A stretch of DNA of 64,000 bases from NCBI GenBank assembly GCA_964187785.1, contig OZ076409.1, positions 6,078,001-6,142,000 of the forward strand, in the 5' to 3' direction. The notes under the pieces were generated by a model. That model was given only the letters and a program-made list of their open reading frames with translations, was not told the origin of the DNA and did no database searches. Source of the DNA: Amphiscolops sp. MND2022 (taxonomy: Eukaryota). Positions within the stretch are counted from its first letter, which is position 1, and each line of letters starts with the position of its first letter. The position numbers were made by a program, and so were the translations under genes. This document shows positions 6,101 through 62,430 of the stretch, piece after piece.

Positions 6101-6619
6101 ACTAGACGCAAGCAGAAGACAATTTTTTCCACTATCCGATATCATGGATCTTCGTCATCGATCAAGTGCCATGTCTATCATCATGTTGGGGGGAGAAGAC
6201 ACACACCCGTGGTCTGCAACGACAGTAGGGAACCCCATACCAGCCACTATCCCAGTAACAAAAAAACAACCACCAAACTACTCATACCGGTCACTATCTT
6301 TTTAAAGAGCTGCATTGATATACATGTTTGAAAAAAAACTGTAATAAATTTCTTCGAATGGGGTGGGCGGAAGTAGGTCCGAATGTATCTCTCACAGTTC
6401 TTAGAACACAAGCCACACTGCCAATCTGAGAAGCCATTGAAATCCGTTGATTCAAAAAGCTGCCAGCTCGTTGATGGTCGTGCGAACGACAGGGTGGGCG
6501 AAAATAGGTCGAAGGAACGGGATCGAAAATCAGAGTTAGTCCTCAGGTCGACATATCAAATTTTTGAATGGGATCGAAACAACTCGGATCGAAATTTTTA
6601 TAACGTAGTCAGATATGTT

Positions 6620-6984
6620 CACATGGCCTGCTGCTGAAGCTATGGACAGCAGGAATACGAGGATCACTCTTTAATCTCCTTCGGAATTTCCTCAAATGCC
6701 GACTGATACGAACAAAACTGGATGGAGTCTTAAGCTCGCCCATTAAGCCAGAACAGGGAGTTCCGCAAGGAAGCGTACCCTCACCATTGCTTTTCATATT
6801 TTTCATCGCAGAAATGTTGAAGAACACTGATGGGACTAAATTCAAATATGCGGACGACTCTCAGATCCTTATGTCTGCAGAAACACAAGCCTCCCTCTGC
6901 GAAAAAATTCAGAAAAACCTGAATTCGGTGAAAACATGGTGCAACACATGAAAATTCAAATAACGGATTGAAAACAGAGATAAT
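6620..6984 (+). pseudogene. Non-LTR retrotransposon (LINE) reverse transcriptase, fragment 1 (5'-truncated)
   Basis: Reads HGLLLKLWTAGIRG...GVPQGSVPSPLLFIFFI...KYADDSQI, containing the GVPQGS and YADD RT motifs. Missing from the ORF track. Confidence 0.9.
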
Positions 6985-21991: not shown

Positions 21992-22417
21992 ACTCAACAT
22001 CAGCACGTTGCCTGAACAGGTGGAGAGAACTGAGTTATCATTGCACAGGCAAATGGGGTCTATCGAGACACACCCTCACAGTTATGTACTAAACATTGAT
22101 TCTACCGGCCTTACTAAACTGCACACCTGTATGGGCGAGTCAAAACATCACTAAATAAACTAAATTTTAACATACGATTACCCGCAGCATAATGGAAACC
22201 AGATACAATGCAAACTCGGCAGCAGCTGAAGTTCTTTTGGGTATTCCACCCATAGACATACTGTGTCAAAGCATATCATCGGAATTTTTAACAAAAGTTC
22301 TACAAAGTAATGATCATGTGACAAATCAAATAATAGAAAATGAATCAGACTTAGCGTTTCTTATGGGCCATAGAAATACGTTGAGACAATTTTACGGCAG
22401 AAAGACATTAAACCTAC
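21992..22417 (+). pseudogene. LINE fragment (post-RT region), with stop codons, ending at the assembly gap
   Basis: DSTSARCLNRWRELSYHCTGKWGLSRHTLTVMY*TLILPALLNCTPVW...AEVLLGIPPIDI, in frame with fragment 2. The WG..LY..I.P...VW and E...GIPP patterns are typical of LINE ORF2 downstream of RT. Confidence 0.8.
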
Positions 22418-22617
22418 NNNNNNNNNNNNNNNNNNNNNNNNNNNNNNNNNNNNNNNNNNNNNNNNNNNNNNNNNNNNNNNNNNNNNNNNNNNNNNNNNNN
22501 NNNNNNNNNNNNNNNNNNNNNNNNNNNNNNNNNNNNNNNNNNNNNNNNNNNNNNNNNNNNNNNNNNNNNNNNNNNNNNNNNNNNNNNNNNNNNNNNNNNN
22601 NNNNNNNNNNNNNNNNN
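22418..22617. other. Assembly gap (200 N; true size unknown)
   Basis: Run of N. Confidence 1.
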
Positions 22618-23214
22618 AAAGAAGTGGAAAGAGCTGGTTATGGTTTATTTGTCCAGCGAGCTTTCAAGAAAGGGGAATTTATCGTTAATTATCGAGGAAA
22701 AGTAGAAACGGCAAGCGAAGCCCAGGACAATGTCTACAGCATTGAATCAGGTCCACCTGAGAACCTCGTAGTTGACGCCTCCAATAGAACCGAACGCATC
22801 GCCAGGTTCATAAATGACGTAGATCCATTCCACGTTCAAAACTGCAGACCTGTGAAAGTGTTTGATAAGGAGAAAAGCACCTGGGCCATTGCTATTTTTG
22901 CGAAGAACATTGAGGAAGAAGAAGAGCTGAGATATAGTTATGGATCAGAGGAAGCTCCCTGGCGAGAATTGAAGTTCTGGCCAGGAGGTCATAAACGTGG
23001 TCCACAGCTCCAACAAGATGTTCAGCTGGAGTCAAAAGTCAATGTCGAAGTCAAAAATAAAAGTCAATGTCGAAGTCAAGAATAAAAGTCAATATCGAAG
23101 AAAAAATGCACGTTCCAAGAACAAAATTGCTGCTGCAAGTGCTGAAGATGAAGCTGCAAAGAAAAAGAGCAAAGGAAGCGGAAGCGAAATAGCCGACCCG
23201 GAAACTGCCAAAAT

Positions 23215-23725
23215 TGAACTTGTCAATAAAGAACCTGAAACTGAACTTGTCAATAAAGAACCTGAAACCGAACTTGTCAATAAAGAATCCGAAACCGAAC
23301 TTGTCAATAAAGAACCTGAAACCGAACTTGCCAGTAAAAGTGCTGAAACAACTGAACTTGTCAATGATAATGTCCAAACCGAAGTTGCCAATGAAAATGT
23401 GGAAAGTGAAGTTATATTAGAAAATGTGGAAAGTGAAGAAGTTAGTGAAAATGGCGAAACTGAAGATGTCGAAGAAAATGTGGAAAGTGAAGATATATTA
23501 GAAAATGTGGAAAATTAAGATGTCAGTGAAAATGGCGAAACTGAAGATGTCGAAGAAAAAGTGGGAAGTGAAGTTATATTAGAAAATGTGGAAAATGAAG
23601 ACGTCAGTGAAAATGGCGAAACTACAGATGTCGAAGAAATTGTGGAAAGTGAAGTTATATAAGAAAATGTGGAAAGTGAAGATGTCAGTGAAAATGGCGA
23701 AACTGAAGATGTCGAAGAAAATGTT
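23215..23725 (+). repeat. Coding minisatellites: 27-bp (ELVNKEPET) x~5 and ~81-bp (ENVESEVILENVESEDVSENGETEDVE) x~4
   Basis: Directly visible tandem repeats giving a Glu-rich linker. Confidence 0.85.
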
Positions 23726-25444
23726 CAACTTGAACTTGTCGGTGAAAATGTCGAAGCTGCTGCTGATGCTGAAACTGAATATGAAACAATTCAACCTACT
23801 CAAAGTGAGTCGAACCCCGCTCCCAGCAATCGGGATTTCCAGGATACCCAACGTGATTTACAACAAGGAAATCTGGATGTAAATGAAACAACCCTTTTAA
23901 CCTTTGGCAATTCTCTGTAGTTCATCGAATGCGTCCGAACACCAATGGAAGAGCACGGGCAGTCCAGTTCAGATAACAGTGGAGATTCAGAATTTCAATT
24001 CAGAGAATTGCCGCCGAGCAGAAACAACAAACCAAGAAGACCAGAAGTAGAAAAATGTATGCTTTGCGACAAAGAAGTTCGTAAGATGAGAGATCACTTA
24101 TCAAACAAACACCGACTCACAAACGATGACAAACTCCGGAAATTTATCAGCACATATCACACTACGTTCGGTACAGTACGTTGTTATCAGTGCGAAGTTT
24201 GTTCGGTCCGTTTTGCCGATCGTGCAAAACATGCAAAAGATCACGTGATAGAGCGAATACACGAGAGAAAGAACATTACTCATTCCCCAACAAACATCCT
24301 TGTTGCAGTCACCCAGTTCAGAAACCAATTGCTGCTGCCCTATAGGGAGATCGTGGATTTCTGGGTAAACCACGAGAGGGGGCTATTCGACGATGGTGAC
24401 ACCTCTGGTACCTGGAATGTTTCCTCAACACAGTTTGCATTCCTTTGTCGTGCTATTGAAGCAACTCTCTACTTTGAAGAACCATCAATTTTCAAGTTTA
24501 TGTTCGCCAGTACATGAATAAACGATAAATTACCAGAAACACGATGGTCAATTATATACTGATGTTTCAAAAAATGGTCGAATTCATTAGAGCTTATAAA
24601 CGATCGAGCATTCCCACTATAATGGACAACGACTGGCACAAGATAATAAAAGACGTTAAAAGAAAATACCAAAAAGGGTCTTTGAAGGAGAAGAAAAAGA
24701 TGAAACGTGATTTGTTTTCAAAAGTTCCGGATATGGAGGGTGTAGCTCTGGTTGTTAACAAAATTGAAGAACTAAGCAAAGAAGATTCAGAAGAAAACAA
24801 ACTGACTCTCGAAGACCTGACAGTGTTCAATTTCGTGTTTCTGAGTAGCAATATGAAAGGGCGTGTCGGACCATTAGCTGACCTAACGTGGGATGATGTG
24901 AAAAGAATAAAAAAACACGGTAAACTGACATCGGATAATCACAAAACCGGGCACTACTATGACCAAGAAATCAAAATCCATAGTGAGCAATTTCCACGGC
25001 TAAAACGACTCAGGGAAGAGTCTAGAAAGAAATATGGGTACCGACCAAGACTTGCTTTTGGAACTGCTATGGATGCCAAAGACCATTCACTCTCATCGAC
25101 AATTCGCAAAATTCTCGCAAAGTTCTTCGACGAAGAAATCCTTGAAAAAGACTACAATGATACGTCCATCAAGAAAATGTGGGACACTTACGTCCACAAT
25201 AATTCGGATTCAATACTCACTGAAGCGCGGGCCTTTCATACCATGCAGTCATCGCATCGAGAGGAGACAGCCGAAAAACACTATGTAGTTCCCAGTACCT
25301 CAGGAACTGACTTTTATCATAACACGTTGAAGAACGTTGGTACTTCGTCGTCATCAAAGTCGATAACGTCAACTCCTTCAGCACAAGGTGTCAGTCAAAC
25401 TACAACAACAACGCTATCAAAAGTAACACCAATTTGGAAGTCGT

Positions 25445-25640
25445 CAACTGCAACAAAATCTCCCGCAACTAAGTCTTGCGCAACAAAGTCTCCCGCAACT
25501 AAGTCTCCCGCAACTAAGTCTCCCGCAACTAAGTCTTCCGCAACAAAGTACCCCGCAACTAAGTCTTCCGCAACAAAGTCTCCTGCAACTAAGTCTTCCG
25601 CAACAAAAACTTTCGCAACGAAGTCTTCCGCAACAAAAAG
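25445..25640 (+). repeat. 15-bp coding repeat (GCAACTAAGTCTCCC-like; ATKSP/ATKSS) x~12
   Basis: Tandem repeats in the YR ORF tail. Confidence 0.9.
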
Positions 25641-26087
25641 GCTTCCGAAACATGAAGATTCAGAATCAGAAACTTCATTTTTGTCATGCTCGTCTGAGGC
25701 AGATGAATCAGAAGTTTCCTCTTCAAAAACAGGAAGAAGATCAACGAAATATCTGATAAACGTTGAATACATGGAGAGATGGCAGCCCCTCCCCAGACGT
25801 TCTCAAAGCTGTTGCTCTCTTCGAGAACCTTTTGTGTCGATTGTAAAAGAAAGATGTAGTGAGGACTATCGATAAAGCCAAAATCAAGCTAACCCGTGAG
25901 GAGTTAGCAAGAGATATAAACAAAGTTAAATGGGCTGGGAACCAGCACTTGCCCAAGCACAAGTTTTCGTAGCTTTAGAAGTGCCCCTTCCAAGAAAACT
26001 TCGTACACCGCATTTCAAAGAAGGAAATTGAGAGAGATGTAAGAAGAAGAAACTTTATAGAATTTCATATCTTTGTCATATTTACAG

Positions 26088-26340
26088 CACTGAACCACTG
26101 TAACCAAGCAACTGATGTAACCAAGAAACTGAACCACTGTAACCAAGCAACTGATGTAACCAAGAAACTGAACCACTGTAACAAAGCAACTGATGTTACC
26201 AAGAAACTGAACCACTGTAACCAAGCAACTGATGTAACCAGGAAACTGAACCACTGTAACCAAGCAACTGATGTAACCAAGAAACTGAACCACTGTAACC
26301 AAGCTACTGATTTAACGAAGACACTGAACTACTGTAACCA
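26088..26340. repeat. 39-bp tandem array (~6.5 copies) ACTGAACCACTGTAACCAAGCAACTGATGTAACCAAGAA
   Basis: 13-aa periodicity in the spurious minus-strand ORFs; the unit consists of two related subunits (22+17 bp). Confidence 0.92.
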
Positions 26341-26564
26341 CGTTACCTAAAAGGTCCCACTAAAGAACTTGTAACCAAGCATTTAAGTAACTTGAATCGG
26401 CTGTTGACCTCCTGTTGGCATGGGACCAGAGGGGAATGGATGGAGGTGCCCCTCATTATTAATCTTTCTTCTTGTGTCTTGCAAAACTTGGTTGGAAACT
26501 TCCCAGAGAGAGCAAAATTCTATATTCAAAGAATTCACCAAAAATATGTCTCAAGTTCTGGAAC

Positions 26565-26725
26565 AGTCGACGTGTATACGCTAAAGATTACTACCGAATG
26601 AACAGCAAGTCGTTGCTACCCGTCAGATGGATGCCACCTGAAGCTATTACATACACGACTTTCACGGCTGCAAGTGATGTCTACTTTTTTGGAGTAGTGT
26701 TATGTTAAGTTTTCTCTTTTGGCAC
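26565..26725 (+). pseudogene. Isolated receptor tyrosine kinase fragment (activation loop to subdomain IX), ROR/Trk/MuSK-like, with a nonsense codon
   Basis: SRRVYAKDYYRMNSKSLLPVRWMPPEAITYTTFTAASDVYFFGVVLC*VFSFG; the expected WE is replaced by C*. Confidence 0.8.
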
Positions 26726-27190: not shown

Positions 27191-27509
27191 CCGCAACTGT
27201 TCTATTCATTTATCACGCTCGCAACTCAAACACCGGACCGTCTTGAGGTTATCACCTTTACCTGATACTAATTCAGTGATTTTGCGCTCACAAAAATTGT
27301 AAAAAAACCGAATCAAAAGGTACGTAGTTTTGTCTCTTAAAATAAGCCATTGTCATTTACTCATTTTGAAGTCCGGTTCGTTCCATGAAATTTAGACATC
27401 AAATGAAATATGAACGGATAAACGAAAATAATTATGAAAATCACCCTGAATTTTTTCGCATGTCCTTTTTTTGTCATTGCAGCTTTTGAAATGAATCTCG
27501 TTTAAAAAC

Positions 27510-29599
27510 ATAGTATAGTATAGTATAGTATAGTATAGGATAGTATAGTATAGTATAGTATAGTATAGTATAGTATAGTATAGTATAGTATAGTATAGTA
27601 TAGTATAGTATAGTATAGTATAGTATAGTATAGTATAGTATAGTATAGTATAGTATAGTATAGTATAGTATAGTATAGTATAGTATAGTATAGTATAGTA
27701 TAGTATAGTATAGTATAGTATAGTATAGTATAGTATAGTATAGTATAGTATAGTATAGTATAGTATAGTATAGTATAGTATAGTATAGTATAGTATAGTA
27801 TAGTATAGTATAGTATAGTATAGTATAGTATAGTATAGTATAGTATAGTATAGTATAGTATAGTATAGTATAGTATAGTATAGTATAGTATAGTATAGTA
27901 TAGTATAGTATAGTATAGTATAGTATAGTATAGTATAGTATAGTATAGTATAGTATAGTATAGTATAGTATAGTATAGTATAGTATAGTATAGTATAGTA
28001 TAGTATAGTATAGTATAGTATAGTATAGTATAGTATAGTATAGTATAGTATAGTATAGTATAGTATAGTATAGTATAGTATAGTATAGTATAGTATAGTA
28101 TAGTATAGTATAGTATAGTATAGTATAGTATAGTATAGTATAGTATAGTATAGTATAGTATAGTATAGTATAGTATAGTATAGTATAGTATAGTATAGTA
28201 TAGTATAGTATAGTATAGTATAGTATAGTATAGTATAGTATAGTATAGTATAGTATAGTATAGTATAGTATAGTATAGTGAAGTATAGTATAGTATAGTA
28301 TAGTATAGTATAGTATAGTATAGTATAGTATAGTATAGTATAGTATAGTATAGTATAGTATAGTATAGTATAGTATAGTATAGTATAGTATAGTATAGTA
28401 TAGTATAGTATAGTATAGTATAGTATAGTATAGTATAGCATAGTATAGCATAGTATAGTATAGTATAGTATAGTATAGTATAGTATAGTATAGTATAGTA
28501 TAGTATAGTATAGTATAGTATAGTATAGTATAGTATAGTATAGTATAGTATAGTCTAGTATAGTATAGTATAGTATAGTATAGTATAGTATAGTATAGTA
28601 TAGTATAGTATAGTATAGTATAGTATAGTATAGTATAGTATAGTATAGTATAGTATAGTATAGTATAGTATATTATAGTATAGTATAGTATAGTATAGTA
28701 TAGTATAGTATAGTATAGTATAGTATAGTATAGTATAGTATAGTATAGTATAGTATAGTATAGTATAGTATAGTATAGTATAGTATAGTATAGTATAGTA
28801 TAGTATAGTATAGTATAGTATAGTATAGTATAGTATAGTATAGTATAGTATAGTATAGTATAGTATAGTATAGTATAGTATAGTATAGTATAGTATAGTA
28901 TAGTATAGTATAGTATAGTATAGTATAGTATAGTATAGTATAGTATAGTATAGTATAGTATAGTATAGTATAGTATAGTATAGTATAGTATAGTATAGTA
29001 TAGTATAGTATAGTATAGTATAGTATAGTATAGTATAGTATAGTATAGTATAGTATAGTATAGTATAGTATAGTATAGTATAGTATAGTATAGTATAGTA
29101 TAGTATAGTATAGTATAGTATAGTATAGTATAGTATAGTATAGTATAGTATAGTATAGTATAGTATAGTATAGTATAGTATAGTATAGTATAGTATAGTA
29201 TAGTATAGTATAGTATAGTATAGTATAGTATAGTATAGTATAGTATAGTATAGTATAGTATAGTATAGTATAGTATAGTATAGTATAGTATAGTATAGTA
29301 TAGTATAGTATAGTATAGTATAGTATAGTATAGTATAGTATAGTATAGTATAGTATAGTATAGTATAGTATAGTATAGTATAGTATAGTATAGTATAGTA
29401 TAGTATAGTATAGTATAGTATAGTATAGTATAGTATAGTATAGTATAGTATAGTATAGTATAGTATAGTATAGTATAGTATAGTATAGTATAGTATAGTA
29501 TAGTATAGTATAGTATAGTATAGTATAGTATAGTATAGTATAGTATAGTATAGTATAGTATAGTATAGTATAGTATAGTATAGTATAGTATAGTATAGT
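27510..29599. repeat. (TAGTA)n pentanucleotide satellite, left arm (~2.1 kb)
   Basis: Near-perfect 5-bp repeat with only a handful of variant units. Confidence 0.99.
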
Positions 29600-30552
29600 T
29601 GTAACGGCTGCTTGCCCTTATCCTGCGCTGAGGCTTGACAAGCTTTACGCCGCCCTGATCCGTTGCTTAGTGCTGTGGACCGTCACTAAACAATTCCTGG
29701 TTTCTTGTTTTAAAGGACTGTATCTTTTGGCTTGATGGGTCCGATGTGACCCGTGGAATCTCCTGCGATCCCTCTTTTCACTGAATTGGATCCGATGTGA
29801 TCCTGCACACACTTCCCTCACAGTATCTTCACGCGCTCCGGCTCTCCAACTATGAGAGTAGCTACTTAGTCGCTCTGACTCTAGCGAAAAGTTGTGAAGA
29901 TTGAGAAGTAGATTAATTAGTCTCGCGGTCCTGAGACCCAACTTGACTATAGCTATTCAGTGGAGAAAATCTCTATCTAATAATGGTATAAATGTGGTTT
30001 ACAATTCTACAGTAAATATAGAGCAAATATCAGTTGAAATATGTTGTATAAATAAATGACATTTAAGTGAATTATTAAAGTTATTGGCTATGTAAACAAA
30101 GAATGTGGTGGTTTTGGCATGTTGGTCAGGTGGGTTAGAAAGTATGTTTACACAATGTAAACATCATTAATTGCAACAGAGTTACATTTCCTTCAAGGTC
30201 ATATGAGAAAATCACATAATAATTAATACATCAAATTTGGGTAATTCATGGGGTCCGACCTAGGTCACTTTGGGTGTTAATTGCTCTGAACCCAGGGGCG
30301 ATACGGGGTAGGTTGGTTCGAGTGAAAAGTTAGTGTATCACCACCACTATATATGTGCCAAGTTTCGAGGTTGTTGAACAAGTGGTTCGTCGGGACGGGG
30401 TGGGTGGTGTTTTTTTGGGATGCACCATTTCTGATGAGACTTGTAATTTTCCAACTAAAATCTTGACAAAATTTCTAAGAGATTTGAGTTATAAGTTTCA
30501 TAAGTCACGTTCGAATTTGAATTTCTGATCTCGCAATTGACTGGCGCCAACA
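29600..30552 (-). repeat. 3' LTR of the BEL-derived element (953 bp)
   Basis: Direct repeat of 33996-34947; adjacent purine tract on the minus strand. Confidence 0.95.
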
Positions 30553-33281
30553 TTGCCGGCCCTGTTTTTCTCCTGAAAAACACTTTCGTAGAACTTGGGT
30601 GCCAGTTTCACTACTTGTCTTTTGAGTTTTCCATCTTCAGTTCTCACCAGTGCTGATCTCACTCGCCCATCGCTTCCATGATAGACTTCTAACACTCTAG
30701 CTATCTTGTAGCGAGCTCTTTTCACATTTTCATCTACTTTCCAAACCAAATCATTGACTTCTAGTTGTCTAACTTCTTCTTTATTCCATTTTCCAAATAA
30801 TTCAAGTTGCATCATCATTTCTTCCCATGATACAGCCGGCCCTATGAAAGGCCCATTTTCCGAACTTGTTGTTGTTTGTGCTTTTGAAGAACCCAATTGC
30901 GTTTCCATTAGCGATATTTCATCTGCGAATTCATCTATCACAATCTTTGCATATAGGATGCCAGTTGTCAATTGAACACTTTCAACCATTCCATGTAATA
31001 GGTTTGAGGTGTGTTCAAACTTCCAAGCTTGTTTCTTCGGTCGCTTGCGGTGGCCTTTGCTCAACTGAGTTTTATCCATGCCGTTAGCCTGTGCCACCGC
31101 GTCCATCCCAGAGTTTCCATTACCAATCCGAGGGTTCCACTCATTGTTATTACTCGGGATAGTTTCTTCTACAAGGCTTACTTTGAAGTCAACATCAAAT
31201 TTCTCTCCAAAGGTTGCAATCACGGTACGTGTTTCACATTTAGCATTGCATTCAACGGGTTTGTCATGTTTTGCTGCAACATGGTATAGTTTTCGATACA
31301 TTGCTTCTTCATTACAATCATCAAGCAGTGCAAATTGTTGCTCATGCACAAATCCATAACTTTTGTCGAATTCAAAACATTTGTTTCCTTCTTCAAGAAG
31401 TAGAGTACTGTCATGAAGCATCGTCACTTCGAATATTTTCCCTTGCTGTACATCCTGTTGAACGGTGAAAACTTCTGCACTCTCTTGCAGCAGTTCACGT
31501 TGGACACTCGATTCTCCCAAAGTTTGCTAGCTAGATGCGAATGATAAGAATCTATGCTCCTTCCTTGTTTCCGTCATTGTGTGATTCAATATCTCCTTTG
31601 TTTGACTTATCGAATGCTCACTCATGCCCAAGTGAATATCTTCTTCCAAAACCTGTTTGGTATCCACGAGGAGGGTTTCTGAACGGACGTCTTGCCGACC
31701 GTTGTCTACAATGAATGTTTCTGACAATTTCTGTATACATTCCGTTGTGATGAGCTGCGAGGTTCCTTGGTTTGCAAGTTTCACGTCTGGTTGTGATATT
31801 GCTTCTTTTCTGCACGTTTCGTTATCAGCTTGCTCATCGGCTTCTTTTGGAGGTTTTGAGTCTCTCCTATGCGCGGAGAACTTTCCTTCGTGAACTAATT
31901 TCACTGCATTCTCTGATTTCAAACGAACTGATACTGCAATATTGGACTTAGCCCCGTCTTCGACTGTTTCTGTCTCAGCCATGCATCTTGAGTCTTCCGT
32001 GAAACTGTCGGTTGATGAGACACTTGGGAAGCTAGTCCCCTGACTGCTCGACACTTCCGCTATTTCTCTTTCTTTTTCAGCTATTCTGGCTTTGCGGGCA
32101 AGCTATTCATGCAAGTCAGCTATTTCCATTTGTAATGCTTCACGCTTCAGTTTCTCGAGTCAGGTTTGCAGTTCTTCTTGCTCTTTCTGAGCTTTTACTT
32201 TCAAATAAAGAACTCGTCTAGCAATTGAAGTTTTCGAAATCACTGAGCTTCTGTTGCTTCTGGTTTCAACCAGTTTTGGATGTTTGCCCAGTTCCTCTAT
32301 TTCCAATTGTCCAGTCTCGCTTCTTTGGCCTTGGACTTCATCCGATTTCTGATCTTCCGCTTTCTCTAATGCTAGAGGAAACAGTCGATCTCCATTAGAC
32401 CACTTCGTGCTAACTGTTGGTCTGATGTCCATCAGGATTGTTACGTCAGACACCTTACTGTTTTCTTCGAGTAGTGATGTCACATCGTTGATAGAGTTTT
32501 CCACTTCAGATACGCTGTCTCTCATACCCCAGCAACTTTCTTGGTCCTTGGTCCTTCTTGACCGTTTCAGTGATTCCTTTTTACTAGCTGTTTTCTTTAC
32601 ACAATTTGGTTTTGCCTGATGGACACGTCTTTGCTTCAACTTTCTTGTGCGAGGGCATCTCATAGCTGCGTCTGCAGATGTTCCATTTGTCATCTGACTC
32701 AGTTTCAACTCTTTTTTTGTCCCATCAATTGGACACTTCAACGTTTGATGCACATCGGGGAACCAATATCCCCAACTCGATTCCAGTTTCGCAAAGCATT
32801 CGTCCCATTCAGTCACACTTCGACTGAGCTGTCTTTGCGTTTTTTCATTTGTAAGACTCAACATAAAGTCTACACAGAACAGCAATGCCTGTCTTCTCTC
32901 GCGGTATTCAATTACCCGATCAATCAAGTTGCTTTTGGATACAACAGCTCCTTCCTCATCGAGCTTGTCATCCAAGTCTTTTGCCAATGTATGGAGCTTT
33001 TTCACATGTAGGGGTACAATATCCCAATAGAGGCACCACGCGTACCAATCTGACGCATTTTCCAAATCTTTCGGTCTGAGCTCCATCAGTTGTTGGCTCT
33101 GCTTTGTGTTTCTTCCTTCAAACACATTTGTCATTCGAGGGTGCTGCATCACTTGCCGTTCTTTCTTTTTGGCTTTCATTTGTTCATATGACTCTTTTGT
33201 TTCACTGAGGGCTTTCGAACTTCGCAATTGTTTCTTGAAGGCTTTGTTACCTATCCCAACTTTGCAATTTCTCAGATACAA
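30498..33281 (-). pseudogene. Single reading frame (~900 codons) broken by three stops: gag-like Ser-rich/coiled-coil N-terminus, unrecognised middle, DUF5641-like C-terminus
   Basis: ORFs 32160-33281, 31527-32054 and 30498-31520 all lie in the same frame. Confidence 0.75.
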
Positions 33282-33559
33282 AATGTCAACTGCTCAATCC
33301 GGTAATCAATCGCCAATTCTTGAAGAATCAACCCAATACTGTCGATTATACTTGCCTTCGTTGACGAACTTGATTGTTTCAGTGGATCATGTCCCTCTGA
33401 CTTGATCCCTTTGCTTTACTTGGTGGATTTACTTGCAATGACGTCTTAGACCAGATCTTTGCTTCAATCAGGAATACGATCCCAAAGAATACAATTCGTC
33501 TCAAAAATAGAATTGATGCACAAACACCTCCAGAGTGCCGCTAAAGCCCAACTCCCAGA

Positions 33560-55671: not shown

Positions 55672-57390
55672 ATGCCTACCACGAGGAAGCAGAAAAAAGC
55701 TAGAAAGTCAAGAGGAATTGAGATGCTCTCAGATATAGAGAAGTTAGACATCATGCTTGGTGAAAATCACTTTGACAGAAATGAGAGATGAAAGTATTAG
55801 TAGTAACCGAGCTAGGAGGACTGGAAGTGCTTCAGGGGATGAATTCGAAAACAATGATGAAAATAACCATTTGAATATAGGAGATTTTGGTCCTGGTACT
55901 AGTGCCAATCATGGCCGAAACTCAACAGGAGGTAATTCGAGTGCCGAGATCAATAAGTTATCAAGTGAGTTGAACTCAAGATTGTCTAGAGTACTAGATG
56001 AAATGATGAGTAGTGTCAACACCCAAATCCAAAGAGCAATTAGTGATGCGATTAGTGATCAGATCTTACCGCAAATTCAATCCGTCCTAAATGCCGGATT
56101 GGGACAACCGACACTAAACAGTTGGAAAGCTCCGTCCGAGAGACCGGGGATGAATTCCGAGGAAACTTACGGTGAGAAAACTAAGAAAAACAATAGAAGT
56201 GAGCAGCGCTGTGATTATCAATTTGGTAGTCAACCTAATTTACGCGCTTACGACATGGTGACAGGAGACAACGAATCTCCAATCGAAGCTCGTGAGTTTC
56301 TCACGGGACGAATGCCATCTCGAAACCATCTACAGAGTTCCCATGATGACCTCAACCCACTACTAGACACGACAATCCAGCACAAGAAAGAGCCGTTCAG
56401 ACCCCTGAAATAGACCCTATCACCCGATTGGCCGATGTCCTGACAAGCATGCAGAATCGTCCTTCAGCCCAACAGCTCACTATCCGCCCAGTCAATTCAA
56501 ACACAATGACTTTCGATGATAAAAGTGAGGAATTTGAGCTGTTTGAGGATCTGTTCCACACGATGATCAAGATGCAGCCTGAAATGTCGGAACAAATGAA
56601 AATTAACCACTTCCACTCGCTCCTGCGGAAGAATGCCTTACAAACATTCCGAAACATCAGCACAGCTAATAGACAGACCCTTGAAGACGTATTAGTCATA
56701 TTCCGACGTGAATATGTCAAACCCGAGTCCCAAGCAACCGCCAAACATAAATGGCACCGTCTGGTATTTGACCCAAACACAACAAAACTACCCGATTTTC
56801 TTGAAGAACTAAACCAAGGCGCAGAGAAAGCGTTTGAAGACAACGCCCAAAAGAAGATTGACAGCCTCCTATACGCAAAACTGCCGCCGAAACTGAAAAG
56901 ATCAGTTAACATGGCTAGACTGGAAAATGGCTCCTATGACGAAATCGTCGCTCATCTCGAGAGAGAGTTGGACTTAAATGCACTTGAAGAATCTGATGAC
57001 CTTCCGATGGCATCAATGATATCTTCAACCTCGAAAACAAAAACTGTTCCCTCCAAGGCGCAGATGAGCGACATCACATGCAACTATTGCAAAGAAAAGG
57101 GCCATATGGTCAAAGACTGCGAGAAACTCAAAGAGAAAAGGAGATAGATGCCCAGCAAGGCAAACCAACCCAGAAAAAGCTTGACTTACCCCAAATGCAG
57201 TACTTGTGGCAAGACCAACCATCCCGAAGGGAGATGTTGGCAGGGAGCAGGTGCGCACCTTAAACCCAAGCGCACCAGGCCAGAAGACTCGTCAGACAAT
57301 AATCCTGACTCTAAGGCCCCCAAACCCCACTACAAGCCAATATCATCCACCTCTCAATCTTCATCCAGCAAAGAGGATTCGAAAAACTAG
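55672..57390 (+). pseudogene. gag: Gypsy gag (frameshifts near 55785, 56380 and 57140)
   Basis: MPTTRKQKKARKSR...; CNYCKEKGHMVKDC and CSTCGKTNHPEGRC knuckles. Confidence 0.9.
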
Positions 57391-57399
57391 CTTCGCCAC

Positions 57400-60300
57400 G
57401 ACTCCAATATAATCAATTAGTCTCTGTCCGACAGTACATTAAATCGGACCCTCCAACTAAAAACTTTCACAGTTACCAACAACAATTGATGGGCTATCCT
57501 TCTATTGTATGGCAGCAACAGATGGACAAAGCTATCATCACCACCTACAACAATACCCATTTATTCCAAAAACCAATTCCTGTTTGGTACCCTGACAACA
57601 CGACCACCTTCACTACCCGGTTCAGACCCATTCCCCTGATCGATGAATACAATCCAACATACATCAACCCAGACTATGGCAGAGATCCCTTTTGGGACAC
57701 AGAGATTTATAATCAAGACCCATTGCAATTTCAGTATGTTCTAGACGACATTGAACACTACAACAAAACAGTCAACGAGAACCCTCCAATTACCCGCAAC
57801 AAGAAAACACGAGCACTAATTGAAAACTGGCAAATGAACAATGGTCCAAACCACCCAGTGTTCCCAAACCCCTTCGGACCGAGAATCTTGAAAATAGTGC
57901 TGAAACAATACCACAATCGCTATTAGACGAGAAACAGTTCCAAACTGTACTCATCATCAAAGATGGTGAATCAGACTGTATACCCCTGTCAACCATCATT
58001 AACCTCAAAAGCAAGAAACGCATGCTTTATTTCCCAATGGATTTTGGGGAACTGACCATTGATGGACTCAGACACTGGGACTCTCTCCAGTGCAATTCCT
58101 GAAATGAACCTTCGGAAAATCCGCCTTCTATCTCCACAATCTGTCATCCGGGATGGTCCGCCTCCGAACATCCAAATCATGGTCGCTAATGGGCAACTGG
58201 AAACTCCCAAGAGTACCATAGAGCTCAAATTCGAAATTGGTGACATTGGGTTCCATGAAATCTTCATAGTAATGGAACATTTGACAGGACCGATTATTGG
58301 ACTGATGTTCCTTCAACGAAATCATACAGTCCTGGACATGAGAGACAAGGAATCTTTAACTTCCCGTTCTTTTCAATGAAGCTCAAAACAGCCGATCAAA
58401 AATATTCGAATGTGCAGGAACCGATTCTCAACCCCACTGAAATCACCATTCCACCAAATGAGAGAGTTCTAATTAGAACCAATTCCTTGATGTACCCCGA
58501 GAATGCCGTCACTGGGATTCTACAACCAAGCGACCTTCTACATGAAGAAGGCGACAACACATTTTGCCCAGCTTTGGTCACTCTGAACGATGGCAGTATA
58601 TCGATACCTGTGAACAATTTCACAGACCACCCTTACAAGCTCAAAAAAGGACTTCACATTGCCAATTTCTCAGTCATGACGCCAGAACAGATGAAGTATG
58701 TCAAACCGGTAGACCCGGCAACAACCTGGCACCTTTTGCAAAATGACTGAGAGCAGGCAGCCCATTACGTCAGCAGCCTCATCAAGACAAATAAAAATCC
58801 TCAAAATTCGAAAAATACTGGTTCCCAACTCCAGAAAACCCTGGAAATCCCGAGGAACACACGCTTATCCAGAAACGAATTCTACGTGAATTACAGGCCT
58901 TACAGGACCTGGAGACACTCGACCCCACCCAAGATGAGGAATCTTGTGCAAAATTCCTAGAAAACTTTGATTGGAAATATTCCACTCTTACTTCTGAAGA
59001 AGAGGAGAAAATTGAACAATTACTAGTGGAATTCCACGATATATTTGCACGACACAGATTTGATATAGGCATGAATGAGGAATTCAAGGTGAAATTAACA
59101 CCTAAGGACGATTCCCCAGCCTATATCCAGAGCTTTCCAGCCAACCTATTAACCTATCGACATGTTACACAAATATGGCATAATTCTACCCTACCATTCT
59201 CGAAATATGCGAGTCCAATATTCGCACAAAAGAAACCGAATGGAAAACTCAGACTCTTGGTTGACTTGAGAAAAATCAACAACCTCATATCGGATGATTA
59301 CATAAACAATAATCGTCCCGTCAGTACCCTAGTCGACGCCGCCCAACACTTGGCAGGCAAAAATTGTTCTGTTAATTAGACTGCTCACAGGCATACCACT
59401 GCCTGCCGATGGCTGATCAACAATTGATTGAAATGTTGGGCTTTAATTTCGCCAGTCGCACATTTGCATACAGAAGTTTGGCACAAGGCCTTAGCCGGGC
59501 TCTATCTGCATTTTCCTGCTTTATGAGGGAATACCTCGACAAAGTCATCAAAGCGGATCAGTGTGCCCAGTATGTGGACGATATTGGCATTGCAGCCAAT
59601 GATGCTGACCACCTCATAGCTAACCTGAGAGCAACGTTCAAATGCATTCAGGAAGCAGGCTTTAAGTTGACAATGCACAAAAGTCACTTCGGTGCAAAAG
59701 AAATTGATTTTCTCGGAAAAACTATTAACCCACAAGGCGTCAAACCCCAGAAACAAATTGTACAAAACTTTCTGGAAAAAACCAAACTCCCAAAGTCGAA
59801 AAAAGCTCTACAACGCTACTTGGGATTCCTGAACTACTACATAAATTATGTCCCAAGACTTTCAGTACGCCTTGCTCCATTCTACAAGATGCTGAAAAGG
59901 GACAAAAAAGTCCTAGTATCGAAGAATTAGTCCAACAGTTCGAAGAAATCAATAAAGCACTCGACAAAAGTTGCGATTTGGCCCTACAACAACATTTACC
60001 GAACAAGCAATTTGCACTAATGACAGATGCAAGTTTTAGTGCAGCTGGGTACGCGGTCTTAATTGAAGACGACCCAAGCCAGAAACTTACATCACTCAGA
60101 AAATCGTATGCACCGGTAGCATATGGATCAAAAACCTTCTCCCCAGCACAGATCAAAATGTCAATTTATGCCAAGGAATTCCTTGCAATTTACTTCGCAA
60201 TTAAAAAATTCGGACAAATCTTCTGGGGTGCGCCGAAACCGGTCATTATACTTACAGATAACAAAGCTGTTACGCGATTTTTTCAAACGAAAATAATACC

Positions 60301-62430
60301 CCCAGCCCTGTGGAATGCGTGTGATTATGTGATTCAGTTCAGATTTGTCATAGCGCACATCCCGGGGGCACAAAATACAGCTGCCGACTATTTGTCCCGT
60401 TTGGAAGCAGACCCGAAGGACAAATTAGTCGTGAAAATCCAAGAAGATGTACAAACGCTACCAATTGAAATAAATGTCCAATCCGCAGGGGTATCACAAG
60501 GAGAACAAATCTTCTACACCAATGATGACCATGAGACAGAAGAACAAAATTGGGCAAGGAAAGAAGCAATCAGGAAAAATCCAGCTATTGATGAGGCCAC
60601 GGTTACAATACAAACTCTGTCAACAAACCTAGTCAAACAACAACCTGATATACAAGTCCGATTAAGGAAAGCGAACCAAATCATAATCGAGCAATCCAAA
60701 GATGCAGTACTACAACAATTGAAGGCAAAACTCCTTCATGAAGAGTATTCAGAGAACCTACTGCCGCAGGATGCTCGATACAGACACTATGCAAACACTC
60801 TAGAACGAATTGTACTCAAGGACAAAATCCTGACGAGGCAATACTTTGATGAAACAGGGAACATTAAATACCATCAAATTCTGCTCCCGCAGCACTTACT
60901 CCAGGAATTGCTTCAGTCTCTTCATGGGACAGCGCATAAACATCCCGGCATCTCAAAAATGCTGCAGGAAATCCGGCAGAGGTATTACTACCCTAGCATG
61001 GCTAAACACGTCAAAAAGTGGGTAGACGGGTGCGAACAATGTGCCAGAGACAAGAGAGTCCCTAACGCCACAATTACACCCGAACTGCTCAACTTGCCCG
61101 AATGGGACCTTGGACCTGAAGACGCCATGCAGATTGACCTATTGCCGAATCTACCCCCAAGTGGCGGGTATGAAAACGTCCTAACAGCAATTGATGTCTT
61201 ATTATTGCAGAGATAACACAAATTTTGGGCATAACACTCAAATGTGCCACAACAAAAGATCCGCAAACACTTGGGACATTAGAGCGGACCCAAGCCTCAT
61301 TGAAAACAAACCTCAAAATGGCATGTGGAGAATACCGTCGACAATGGCACAGATACTTGCCATTAGCAGTACTAAACCATAACACTAGTTATCATGCCAG
61401 CATCGGTTGTGAGCCGACGAGAGTATTCCATGGAAGAATTCCATAAAGTATATTGGATCACAAGCTTGGAAATAATCCAAACGAACAGATCAATCCAACA
61501 ACCGAATTTGCGGAAGAAATACAAAACCGGACAAAAATCTTGATTGAAAAAACAAAGCAGAATTTTATGCAGTCGTATATCAAATACAAAGAATATTACG
61601 ACCGCAAAGCAAAAGCCGCTCCATTAAAGGAGAATGATTACTGCTTTGTCTTACAGCCGAAAGCGGATCATCAAGAATCAAAATTTCCATTCCGTGATTA
61701 TCGTTGGGTTGGACCATTTATAGTTCAAAAAGTTTTGCCCAATGAAAATTATATTCTACGACGAATTAATTCAAACAAGACTCAAATATTGCATCAGATT
61801 CCCCTTAAAAAGTTTGTCCCCAATCAACCGCTTGAGGACAATTTCCGAGAACAGCGGTTACAGCCTAATGAAAAAATTGTTATTCCGCAAGATGACTTAT
61901 ACACCATAACGTGGGAGACAGACTCTGGCACGCAACTAGTTACACGAGGACACGATCCTATTCCGACTAGCTTGCCGAATGGCGAACGGCCGAGTGCGGC
62001 AGAAACGAATTCAAGTGACGCGAACGAGAATAAAGCAGACTACATAATCACCAGAGACGAAACAAATTACGCTGACCACGCGACGCACAGTCGAAATGAA
62101 AGATTAAATGATTACGTCACTATGAGAAATGAAACTAGTGAAGTGACTAGAACTGAAAAAACTGATTGGCCGAATCCGGCCGTTTCCCCAAAAACTCACA
62201 AAAAATCTTCGCCGAATCCGGATGAAGGACTGAAAAACGACAAAAATTTTCCAGAAAGAAACTCAATGAATGAAAATGACGCACAAAATTCTCCAAACAG
62301 GGGGGATGATATTGTCGTGCCCGAAATATCAGAAAATGAGGCTAGAAATGAACGTCTGAGCCCTGGAGAAGGGAAATATAAGCTCAGGCCTAATCCTAAC
62401 CCAAACTACTCAGAAGACTTCAGATACTAA
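57400..62430 (+). pseudogene. pol: Gypsy pol: aspartic protease, RT, RNase H, integrase; multiple frameshifts/stops and a deletion in the integrase core near 61200
   Basis: PR DTG (~58070). RT ASPIF..KKPNGKLRLLVDLRKIN and QYVDD. RH LMTDAS...KEFLAI...TDNKA...ADYLSR. IN H..HPG...CEQC and MQIDL, then a jump to LERT. Confidence 0.93.

Follow-up and report, generated by a model that had tools for sequence, protein, structure and literature searches.

A decayed composite reading frame in the window

We examined a 64,000-nucleotide stretch of Amphiscolops sp. MND2022 DNA (GenBank assembly GCA_964187785.1, contig OZ076409.1, positions 6,078,001 to 6,142,000 of the forward strand; hereafter the window), which carries the remains of a putative mobile element encoding a SET domain, two zinc fingers and a candidate tyrosine recombinase. 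Reading the region 22100-26400 directly, we observed the decayed remnant of one long open reading frame (ORF) at window 22618-25972 on the plus strand. The features of this copy are listed below in window coordinates; L024 is its closest paralogue, on another chromosome.

22418..22617, no strand: assembly gap of 200 N, in which the 5′ region of the copy is hidden along with its start codon and about 59 codons
22618..23082, plus strand: remnant of a KMT5A/SETD8-like SET domain (Pfam PF00856; paralogue match)
23033..23098, plus strand: tandem 25-bp unit in about 2.6 copies (sequence and comparison with L024)
23102..23920, plus strand: acidic linker of coding tandem repeats, interrupted by three in-frame stops
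24056..24244, plus strand: two C2H2-type zinc fingers (conserved Cys/His columns and structural model)
24334..25336, plus strand: predicted tyrosine-recombinase region, core-binding plus catalytic domain, broken by a frame change (about 24487) and by TAA (24526-28) (end points converted from model residues 99-433)
25440..25640, plus strand: Ser/Thr/Lys/Pro-rich coding repeat (units resembling ATKSP) that separates the recombinase from the C-terminal domain
25760..25972, plus strand: conserved C-terminal four-helix domain with TAA at 25844-46 and the natural stop at 25970-72
25973..26487, plus strand: remnant of the 3′ untranslated region, including a 39-bp tandem repeat at about 26090-26345

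A first-pass annotation of this DNA had proposed that the scattered frames derive from a single ancestral ORF exceeding 1,000 codons, and intact paralogues of 1067, 1082 and 1384 amino acids with the same domain order bear this out. The annotation had also placed a 25-bp duplication between the SET frame and the acidic frame. The two frames are offset by +1, the shift given by one 25-bp unit, and relative to the window copy L024 is missing both one such unit and one A. Farther along, ORFs 22973-23518, 23519-23662, 23663-23920 and 23921-24517 lie in a common frame that is interrupted, as had been claimed, only by point stops (TAA at 23516-18, TAA at 23660-62 and TAG at 23918-20). The frameshift expected near 24500 falls at about 24487 when the window is compared with an intact paralogue by tblastn, and the same comparison brings out lesions that had gone unmentioned: TAA at 24526-28, a frame change at about 25684-25760 and TAA at 25844-46. 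The window copy is therefore more damaged than originally described. For the Ser/Thr/Lys/Pro-rich repeat, Pfam gave only low-complexity matches below the cut-off.

The motifs that had been read in tyrosine-recombinase order (R, K, TSIKK and H-x8-Y) are all located within window 24862-25284, with the R of GRVG at 24862-64, the K of HKTG at 24943-45, and the H (25255-57) and Y (25282-84) separated by eight residues. The second catalytic Arg has become Lys in the window copy (TSIKK, codon 25171-73) and is kept in L024. This substitution, together with the stops and the further lesions, agrees with the earlier view that the copy is dead.

Because window 22418-22617 consists of 200 N, the first ~59 codons and all sequence upstream of them are not assembled; L024 runs on upstream of the gap position with N-terminal coding sequence. 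The similarity of the window copy to L024 (91-92% DNA identity) begins at the gap and ends at 26487, which indicates that the window copy is 3′-truncated. Past 26487, L024 continues into sequence resembling the 5′ end region of family B, one of two intact families described below, and the window continues into a protein-kinase exon fragment. L024 is broken too, at different places, which points to independent decay of the two copies from a once-active subfamily. The window copy is probably a ~3.9-kb fragment of an element that once measured 9 kb or more, and in itself it is ordinary debris.

Intact relatives share one domain order

The genome (1.07 Gb in 1929 contigs) was searched in six frames with the window recombinase piece and also with the SET domain, and both match lists are lower bounds. 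We found at least 145 recombinase matches and at least 151 SET matches. The loci fetched include intact, intronless ORFs of 1067, 1082 and 1384-1386 amino acids. Those of 1067 and 1082 amino acids constitute family B and are 64% identical to the window copy, and those of 1384-1386 amino acids constitute family A, which is 53% identical to it and has at least nine copies of the uninterrupted ORF. The intact ORFs encode, in one frame and in this order, the SET domain, tandem repeats, two C2H2 fingers, the recombinase region, a Ser/Thr/Lys-rich stretch and the C-terminal domain. Relative to the intact paralogue P0001, the window SET domain is 60% identical to residues 60-181 and the window C-terminal domain is 75% identical to residues 999-1067. 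The tandem-repeat units of the linker differ between families, those of the intact relatives being unrelated to the units at the same place in the window.

The joint occurrence of the SET and recombinase parts in other copies had been proposed as a check on the fusion. The two parts lie in one frame in the intact copies, and the 60 best recombinase loci include 52 with a same-strand SET match in the 6 kb upstream; the eight other loci are mostly fragments or clustered partial copies. For the more distant recombinase matches (about 23-31% identity), there is no SET match among the matches listed.

A SET domain related to KMT5A

The SET remnant at window 22618-23082 matches the Pfam SET model (PF00856) with an E-value of 4.3e-09 and 37.2 bits, against a cut-off of 22.4. 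The SET domains of the intact proteins match with E-values of 9e-12 and 2e-08, and the scores of the window copy and these proteins range from 37.2 to 45.7 bits. All three motifs from which a resemblance to PR-Set7/SETD8-type enzymes had been drawn (GYGLF, ARFIND and ELRYSYG) are present in the window. When we searched the sequences of the PDB with the SET domain of a paralogue, the top 14 rows were KMT5A/SETD8 (E 9e-08 to 1e-06), so the nearest solved relatives are the enzymes that had been named.

The family keeps the G-x-G and ELRYSYG motifs, including the ELRYSYG tyrosines in the window copy. The cofactor motif reads N-D instead of N-H in the window copy, as it does in eight of nine aligned family SET domains, with P0055 retaining N-H, and a 3-residue insertion follows the N-D. 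The N-D change is itself conserved, which indicates that the SET domain is under selection. The element shares the G-x-G and ELxYxYG motifs with KMT5A/SETD8/PR-Set7, the mono-methyltransferase of lysine 20 of histone H4 (H4K20). It differs from that enzyme in that its SET domain is N-terminal, fused to a recombinase and marked by N-D with the insertion, whereas the SET domain of KMT5A is C-terminal and carries N-H-S.

A predicted tyrosine-recombinase fold

A search of 1.84 billion proteins (145 matches at E ≤ 0.001) provided a family alignment of 71 members, from which the fingers and recombinase region of P0001, 64% identical to the window copy, were modeled with AlphaFold2. The resulting model has a mean predicted local distance difference test score (pLDDT) of 92.3 and a predicted template modeling score of 0.80. 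Fold prediction had been set beforehand as the check on the recombinase assignment. In VIA-align, tyrosine recombinases occupy every one of the top 34 places (Z 10.9-13.8, 235-301 residues aligned, model residues 99-433), led by XerH (5jjv_A; Z 13.8, 291 residues aligned, root-mean-square deviation 4.6). These matches cover both recombinase domains; human topoisomerase I (Z 10.3) and the protelomerase TelA (Z 7.1) are also in the list. Foldseek comparison with the PDB returned, among the matches listed, XerA, Cre, lambda Int, XerH, Tn1549 Int and TelA, with probabilities of 0.92-1.00 and modest E-values (6e-04 to 7e-02), and a feature search of a protein atlas led to a tyrosine-type recombinase cluster (0.94).

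Five residues are strongly conserved across the 71 aligned sequences: R275 (54/59), K302 (52/55), R378 (47/52), H406 (50/54) and Y415 (44/49). They follow the canonical R, K, R, H, Y order, with eight residues between the H and the Y. Two Pfam families recur among the 71 members, both below threshold: Phage_integrase (PF00589) in four at E ≤ 0.1 (best E 4.3e-05) and Phage_int_SAM_1 in eight (best E 4.1e-05); Pfam gave no recombinase match for the window piece, P0001 or the other intact proteins. A phmmer search of PDB sequences with the window recombinase piece returned nothing relevant. We regard the tyrosine-recombinase fold of this region as shown by the structural model and recombinase catalysis as likely.

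The two fingers have the patterns C-x2-C-x9-H-x4-H and C-x2-C-x9-H-x3-H. Their Cys/His columns are kept in 24/25 to 31/31 family members, and in the model they form a β-hairpin plus helix; Pfam matches ROS_MUCR weakly in six of the 71 members. The last ~75 residues of the paralogue are predicted as four helices with pLDDT 94-98. Foldseek found no match for this C-terminal domain in the PDB at E ≤ 0.001, the best fold match being a Fur-family regulator (E 0.45, probability 0.90), and we regard a possible helix-turn-helix here strictly as a lead.

Young families insert in (TAG)n microsatellites

Two copies of family A are 99.98% identical over 8427 bp, the last 2.2 kb of this family is present at 13 places with 97-100% identity, and near-identical copies sit on different chromosomes. 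Elements of family A are 9349-9454 bp long, and those of family B 14.2 kb. The sequence shared by family A copies starts and stops within a (TAG)n microsatellite. With the junction marked by a slash, the 5′ end reads (TAG)nTA/CTTGGCTG in all five copies with an anchor in the fetched DNA, and the 3′ end reads ...GATG/(TAG)n in six copies; past the microsatellite, the flanks are unrelated between copies. Family B has a 5′ junction in the same phase as family A in 3/3 copies and a 3′ junction of ...GAAG/(TAG)n in 2/2. In both families the joined flanks form an in-phase (TAG)n tract, provided that the last G is taken as part of the repeat; neither duplication nor loss of target sequence is then detectable. 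Families A and B, both young, insert in (TAG)n, a target preference that applies to these two families.

The C9 copy of family A provides a filled site, as it is inserted in the (TAG)n of a repeat, here called R, that has an uninterrupted (TAG)n at the same place in locus L039, a paralogous empty site. Repeat R (L023 1-2840, L027 2189-3000 and L039) is very abundant and young, being found at ~25 places with ~100% identity over 812 bp, and its left part is matched at about 26 places. It carries an inverted repeat of 737 bp and, internally, a long (TAG)n.

Several AACGCCAG-like motifs lie at both ends of family B, and a degenerate form is found in family A. The family A copy on C4 has several such motifs in its 5′ flank as well (L037), just outside the (TAG)n. 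This suggests that the C4 copy inserted beside the remains of a related element, which, being flanked by (TAG)n, provide new targets.

Families A and B have (TAG)n on both sides and neither terminal inverted repeats nor long terminal repeats. The absence of reverse transcriptase claimed in the annotation holds for both: within the 14.2 kb of family B and the 9.4 kb of family A there is no other sense ORF, no reverse transcriptase and no RNase H ORF, and Pfam recognizes only SET in their proteins. In the 3′ half of family B (L021+L028+L040), between ~5.7 and 11.3 kb of the element, units of about 886-913 bp are arrayed. Each of them holds a copy of a 202-bp stretch that includes the start codon, together with a SET fragment of 123 bp and parts of the 3′ untranslated region. 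The units look like tandem, internally deleted mini-copies, and the array may reflect circles integrating into resident copies. These 202-bp 5′-region copies in ~900-bp 3′ tandem units loosely recall the split direct repeats of Ngaro, as far as the available text of PMC13465315 describes them, and might suggest a DIRS/Ngaro-type retrotransposon or a nonautonomous derivative that uses reverse transcriptase encoded elsewhere. That explanation is very improbable given the missing reverse transcriptase and RNase H, the lack of such 5′-region copies in family A, and ends that lie in a microsatellite instead of terminal repeats.

Weighing the evidence for a Crypton-like transposon

We conclude that window 22618-26487 is, in all probability, a dead, truncated copy belonging to a family of Crypton-like DNA transposons that have a single ORF, lack reverse transcriptase and encode a divergent tyrosine recombinase. 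The first-pass annotation was thus largely right in its reading of the locus.

A number of observations count against this conclusion. The VIA-align tool note warns that Z-scores of 11-14 can be reached by chance for helical proteins. The His of the HxxR motif is replaced throughout the family, by Asn in 29/52 members and by Thr in 21/52. The best PF00589 score, 23.8 bits, is below the 27.1-bit cut-off; the 71-sequence profile matched only eIF3j (E 0.48) and no recombinase among PDB sequences; and hhalign of the family profile with lambda Int gave a probability of 0.33% and an E-value of 0.18. The sole stretch aligned in that comparison pairs the R and K of the family with Int residues 212 and 235, which we take to be catalytic. 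Given the N-D change in its cofactor motif, the SET domain may be inactive. At the DNA level, no terminus is visible in the window copy, neither the window nor L024 contains a (TAG)n/(CTA)n run of at least five units, the empty site is paralogous, not allelic, and there was no sign of a circle, an excision footprint or a polymorphic insertion. Contigs from four DNA sequencing runs contain 10-14% of family A words, and no RNA run is listed with them. At 90% likeness these contigs correspond to parts of the 5′ region and ORF that have diverged, most being 90-99% alike; none of them joins the 3′ end of family A to its 5′ end, and they are uninformative on circles and expression. Chance similarity as the source of the Z-scores is argued against by the uniformity of the list, in which tyrosine recombinases fill the top entries, and by the residue pattern.

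The family-wide loss of the first His, the presence of topoisomerase I and TelA in the fold list and the lack of any direct sign of excision would also be expected if the recombinase-fold protein were real but not the mover. The elements would then have spread through recombination between (TAG)n tracts or through another element's machinery, the protein being a topoisomerase- or resolvase-like enzyme or a DNA-binding factor. However, at least 90% of members retain R, K, R, H and Y at overall identities of only about 20-60%, and the structural match extends over both recombinase domains, not the catalytic domain alone. The junction phase, moreover, is identical in all examined copies of two families, which unequal microsatellite exchange would not produce. 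We therefore find this alternative unlikely.

If the encoded recombinase does move the element, as we favor, the element protein would bind the subterminal AACGCCAG-like motifs via its fingers, its C-terminal domain or both. The recombinase would exchange strands within the TAG repeat and excise a circle with one (TAG)n joint, and this circle would re-enter another (TAG)n tract conservatively, without target-site duplication. With low confidence, we propose that the SET domain may methylate or merely bind a histone tail (H4K20-like), tying recombination or expression to the local chromatin. It could mark or read H4-tail chromatin at the donor or the target, or modulate expression of the element; a mark placed on chromatin at the element's own locus, as originally suggested, would be one form of this.

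Relationship to known elements and genes

Cryptons, reportedly the subject of work by Goodwin in 2003, share with families A and B a single recombinase ORF, the lack of reverse transcriptase and a short direct repeat identical to the target. Among their subgroups, which include CryptonF, CryptonS, CryptonA and CryptonI, CryptonA is marked by DUF3504 (PF12012), whereas no DUF3504 match was found at the fetched loci of family A, family B and the window subfamily or at the best 60 recombinase loci, nor is DUF3504 among the first 25 of the 47 Pfam families matched by members of the family alignment. The domain does match 24 other places in the genome. At G000:C3:2082695-2085130 (L044-L046), three DUF3504 matches lie 993 bp apart, each in a 1055-amino-acid open frame, and these may represent a tandemly repeated DUF3504 protein.

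As summarized in the accessible text of Kojima and Jurka 2011 (PMC3212892), Cryptons have no reverse transcriptase and no terminal inverted or long direct repeats, and are modeled as moving through circles, with short direct repeats at their ends as the recombination substrate. The model, set out also in the portion available of PMC9977147, has a short sequence at the element terminus recombine with a target that matches it. Ends in (TAG)n together with the same (TAG)n at the target fit this prediction. The same part of PMC9977147 reports a live, site-specific Crypton insertion in Chlamydomonas, with a terminal motif that matches the target. The accessory domains given for Cryptons in the accessible part of PMC3212892 are GCR1_C and a C48 peptidase; in its main text, neither the SET domain nor microsatellites occur.

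CryptonV is a Crypton subgroup in Repbase according to the available passages of PMC4455052 and PMC5753468. The accessible text of Kojima 2022 (PMC8869645) presents it as a recombinase-encoding DNA transposon lineage with some microsatellite-specific families and cites Kapitonov and Jurka, Repbase Reports 2012, on cnidarians. Families A and B have microsatellite-specific insertion in common with CryptonV, a likeness drawn from description only. It is the closest named group, and a microsatellite-specific kind of Crypton is thus already named in Repbase. Endogenous nimaviruses, in the text available from PMC10871703, have recombinases with C2H2 and SAM-like domains that target the telomere repeat (TAACC)n. 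They resemble the element in using a simple-repeat target but belong to giant viral genomes of crustaceans, not to single-ORF elements of 9-14 kb, and that text mentions no SET domain in them.

A further resemblance is to KMT5A-like genes in other animals. The portion of PMC10368294 available to us reports 65 such genes in Hydractinia, 24 in Hydra and 61 in sea urchin, many of which switch on at genome activation. Dozens of dispersed copies encode proteins of 1,026-1,459 amino acids with an N-terminal SETD8-type SET domain at about residues 20-200; the copies are divergent, but their C-terminal ends are conserved. Three long Hydractinia models in table S8 of that paper, a 1289-amino-acid model being one example, have a DNA_BRE_C match, denoting a recombinase or topoisomerase, far downstream of SET; the words recombinase and integrase are absent from its main text. 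The length and layout of these proteins match those of the element family, whereas that text reads them as host genes. Going by layout and length, not alignment, the KMT5A-like genes look like the same elements.

The treatment of many N-terminal-SET KMT5A-like genes as host genes in Hydractinia, Hydra and sea urchin raises the converse explanation, that our sequences are expanded host chromatin genes with extra domains and that the window copy is a pseudogene; the conservation of the SET part across subfamilies in this genome would suit it. Yet multi-kb noncoding sequence is 99-100% identical between copies on different chromosomes, the ends are sharp in (TAG)n with unrelated flanks, one copy lies inside another repeat whose other copies are uninterrupted, and all copies are intronless. 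The DNA_BRE_C matches of the three Hydractinia models point the same way. A syntenic, single-copy, intron-containing gene had been named as the finding that would undo the transposon interpretation. The family is instead multicopy, intronless and mobile, and not a syntenic host gene, and we hold the host-gene explanation to be scarcely credible.

A literature search whose reach ended short of subscription journals and Repbase Reports turned up no paper describing a SET-recombinase transposon. The SET fusion and its distribution among animals stand a fair chance of being undescribed as such. A broader proposal, which we offer tentatively and consider somewhat doubtful, is that these elements represent a widespread animal superfamily of tyrosine-recombinase transposons with a KMT5A-like SET domain that home to (TAG)n, that the cnidarian and sea urchin KMT5A-like genes are copies of them, and that the SET domain writes or reads a histone mark as an integral step.

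Surroundings of the copy in the window

The kinase fragment beyond the 3′ end of the copy (window 26565-26702, plus strand, in ORF 26463-26708) is a piece of a tyrosine or Ser/Thr kinase catalytic domain (Pfam PF07714, E 1e-12) that starts ~80 bp past the loss of similarity to L024. It represents a host exon or else part of a pseudogene that adjoins the truncated element. At the other side, an 82-codon open frame with no Pfam match (window 22171-22417, plus strand) extends from upstream into the N gap. This frame bears no relation to the element, which places the junction of element and flank within the gap.

Window 27392-29666 consists of ~2.3 kb of a 15-bp tandem repeat with a GC content of 0.255 and strong GC skew, whose minus strand reads as endless TILYY. 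The window is also rich in other transposons (55748-62427, plus strand; 30501-33293, minus; 3-1076, minus; 6604-6948, plus), which comprise a long terminal repeat retrotransposon encoding RVT_1, RNase H and Integrase_H2C2, pieces that match DUF1759/DUF5641 and a further fragment of RVT_1.

Implications

Transposons borrow chromatin readers, such as chromodomains, and DNA methyltransferases. A transposase fused to a histone-methyltransferase-type domain would be a different way of coupling mobility to chromatin and, if our interpretation is true, these elements would encode a transposase with a built-in chromatin enzyme that searchable papers do not yet describe as such. With an intact young family, a simple target and sharp ends, they offer a tractable system for a eukaryotic site-specific recombinase. 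The dispersed expansions of KMT5A-like genes in cnidarians and echinoderms may likewise be transposon ORFs; if so, the reading of their activation in the early embryo changes.

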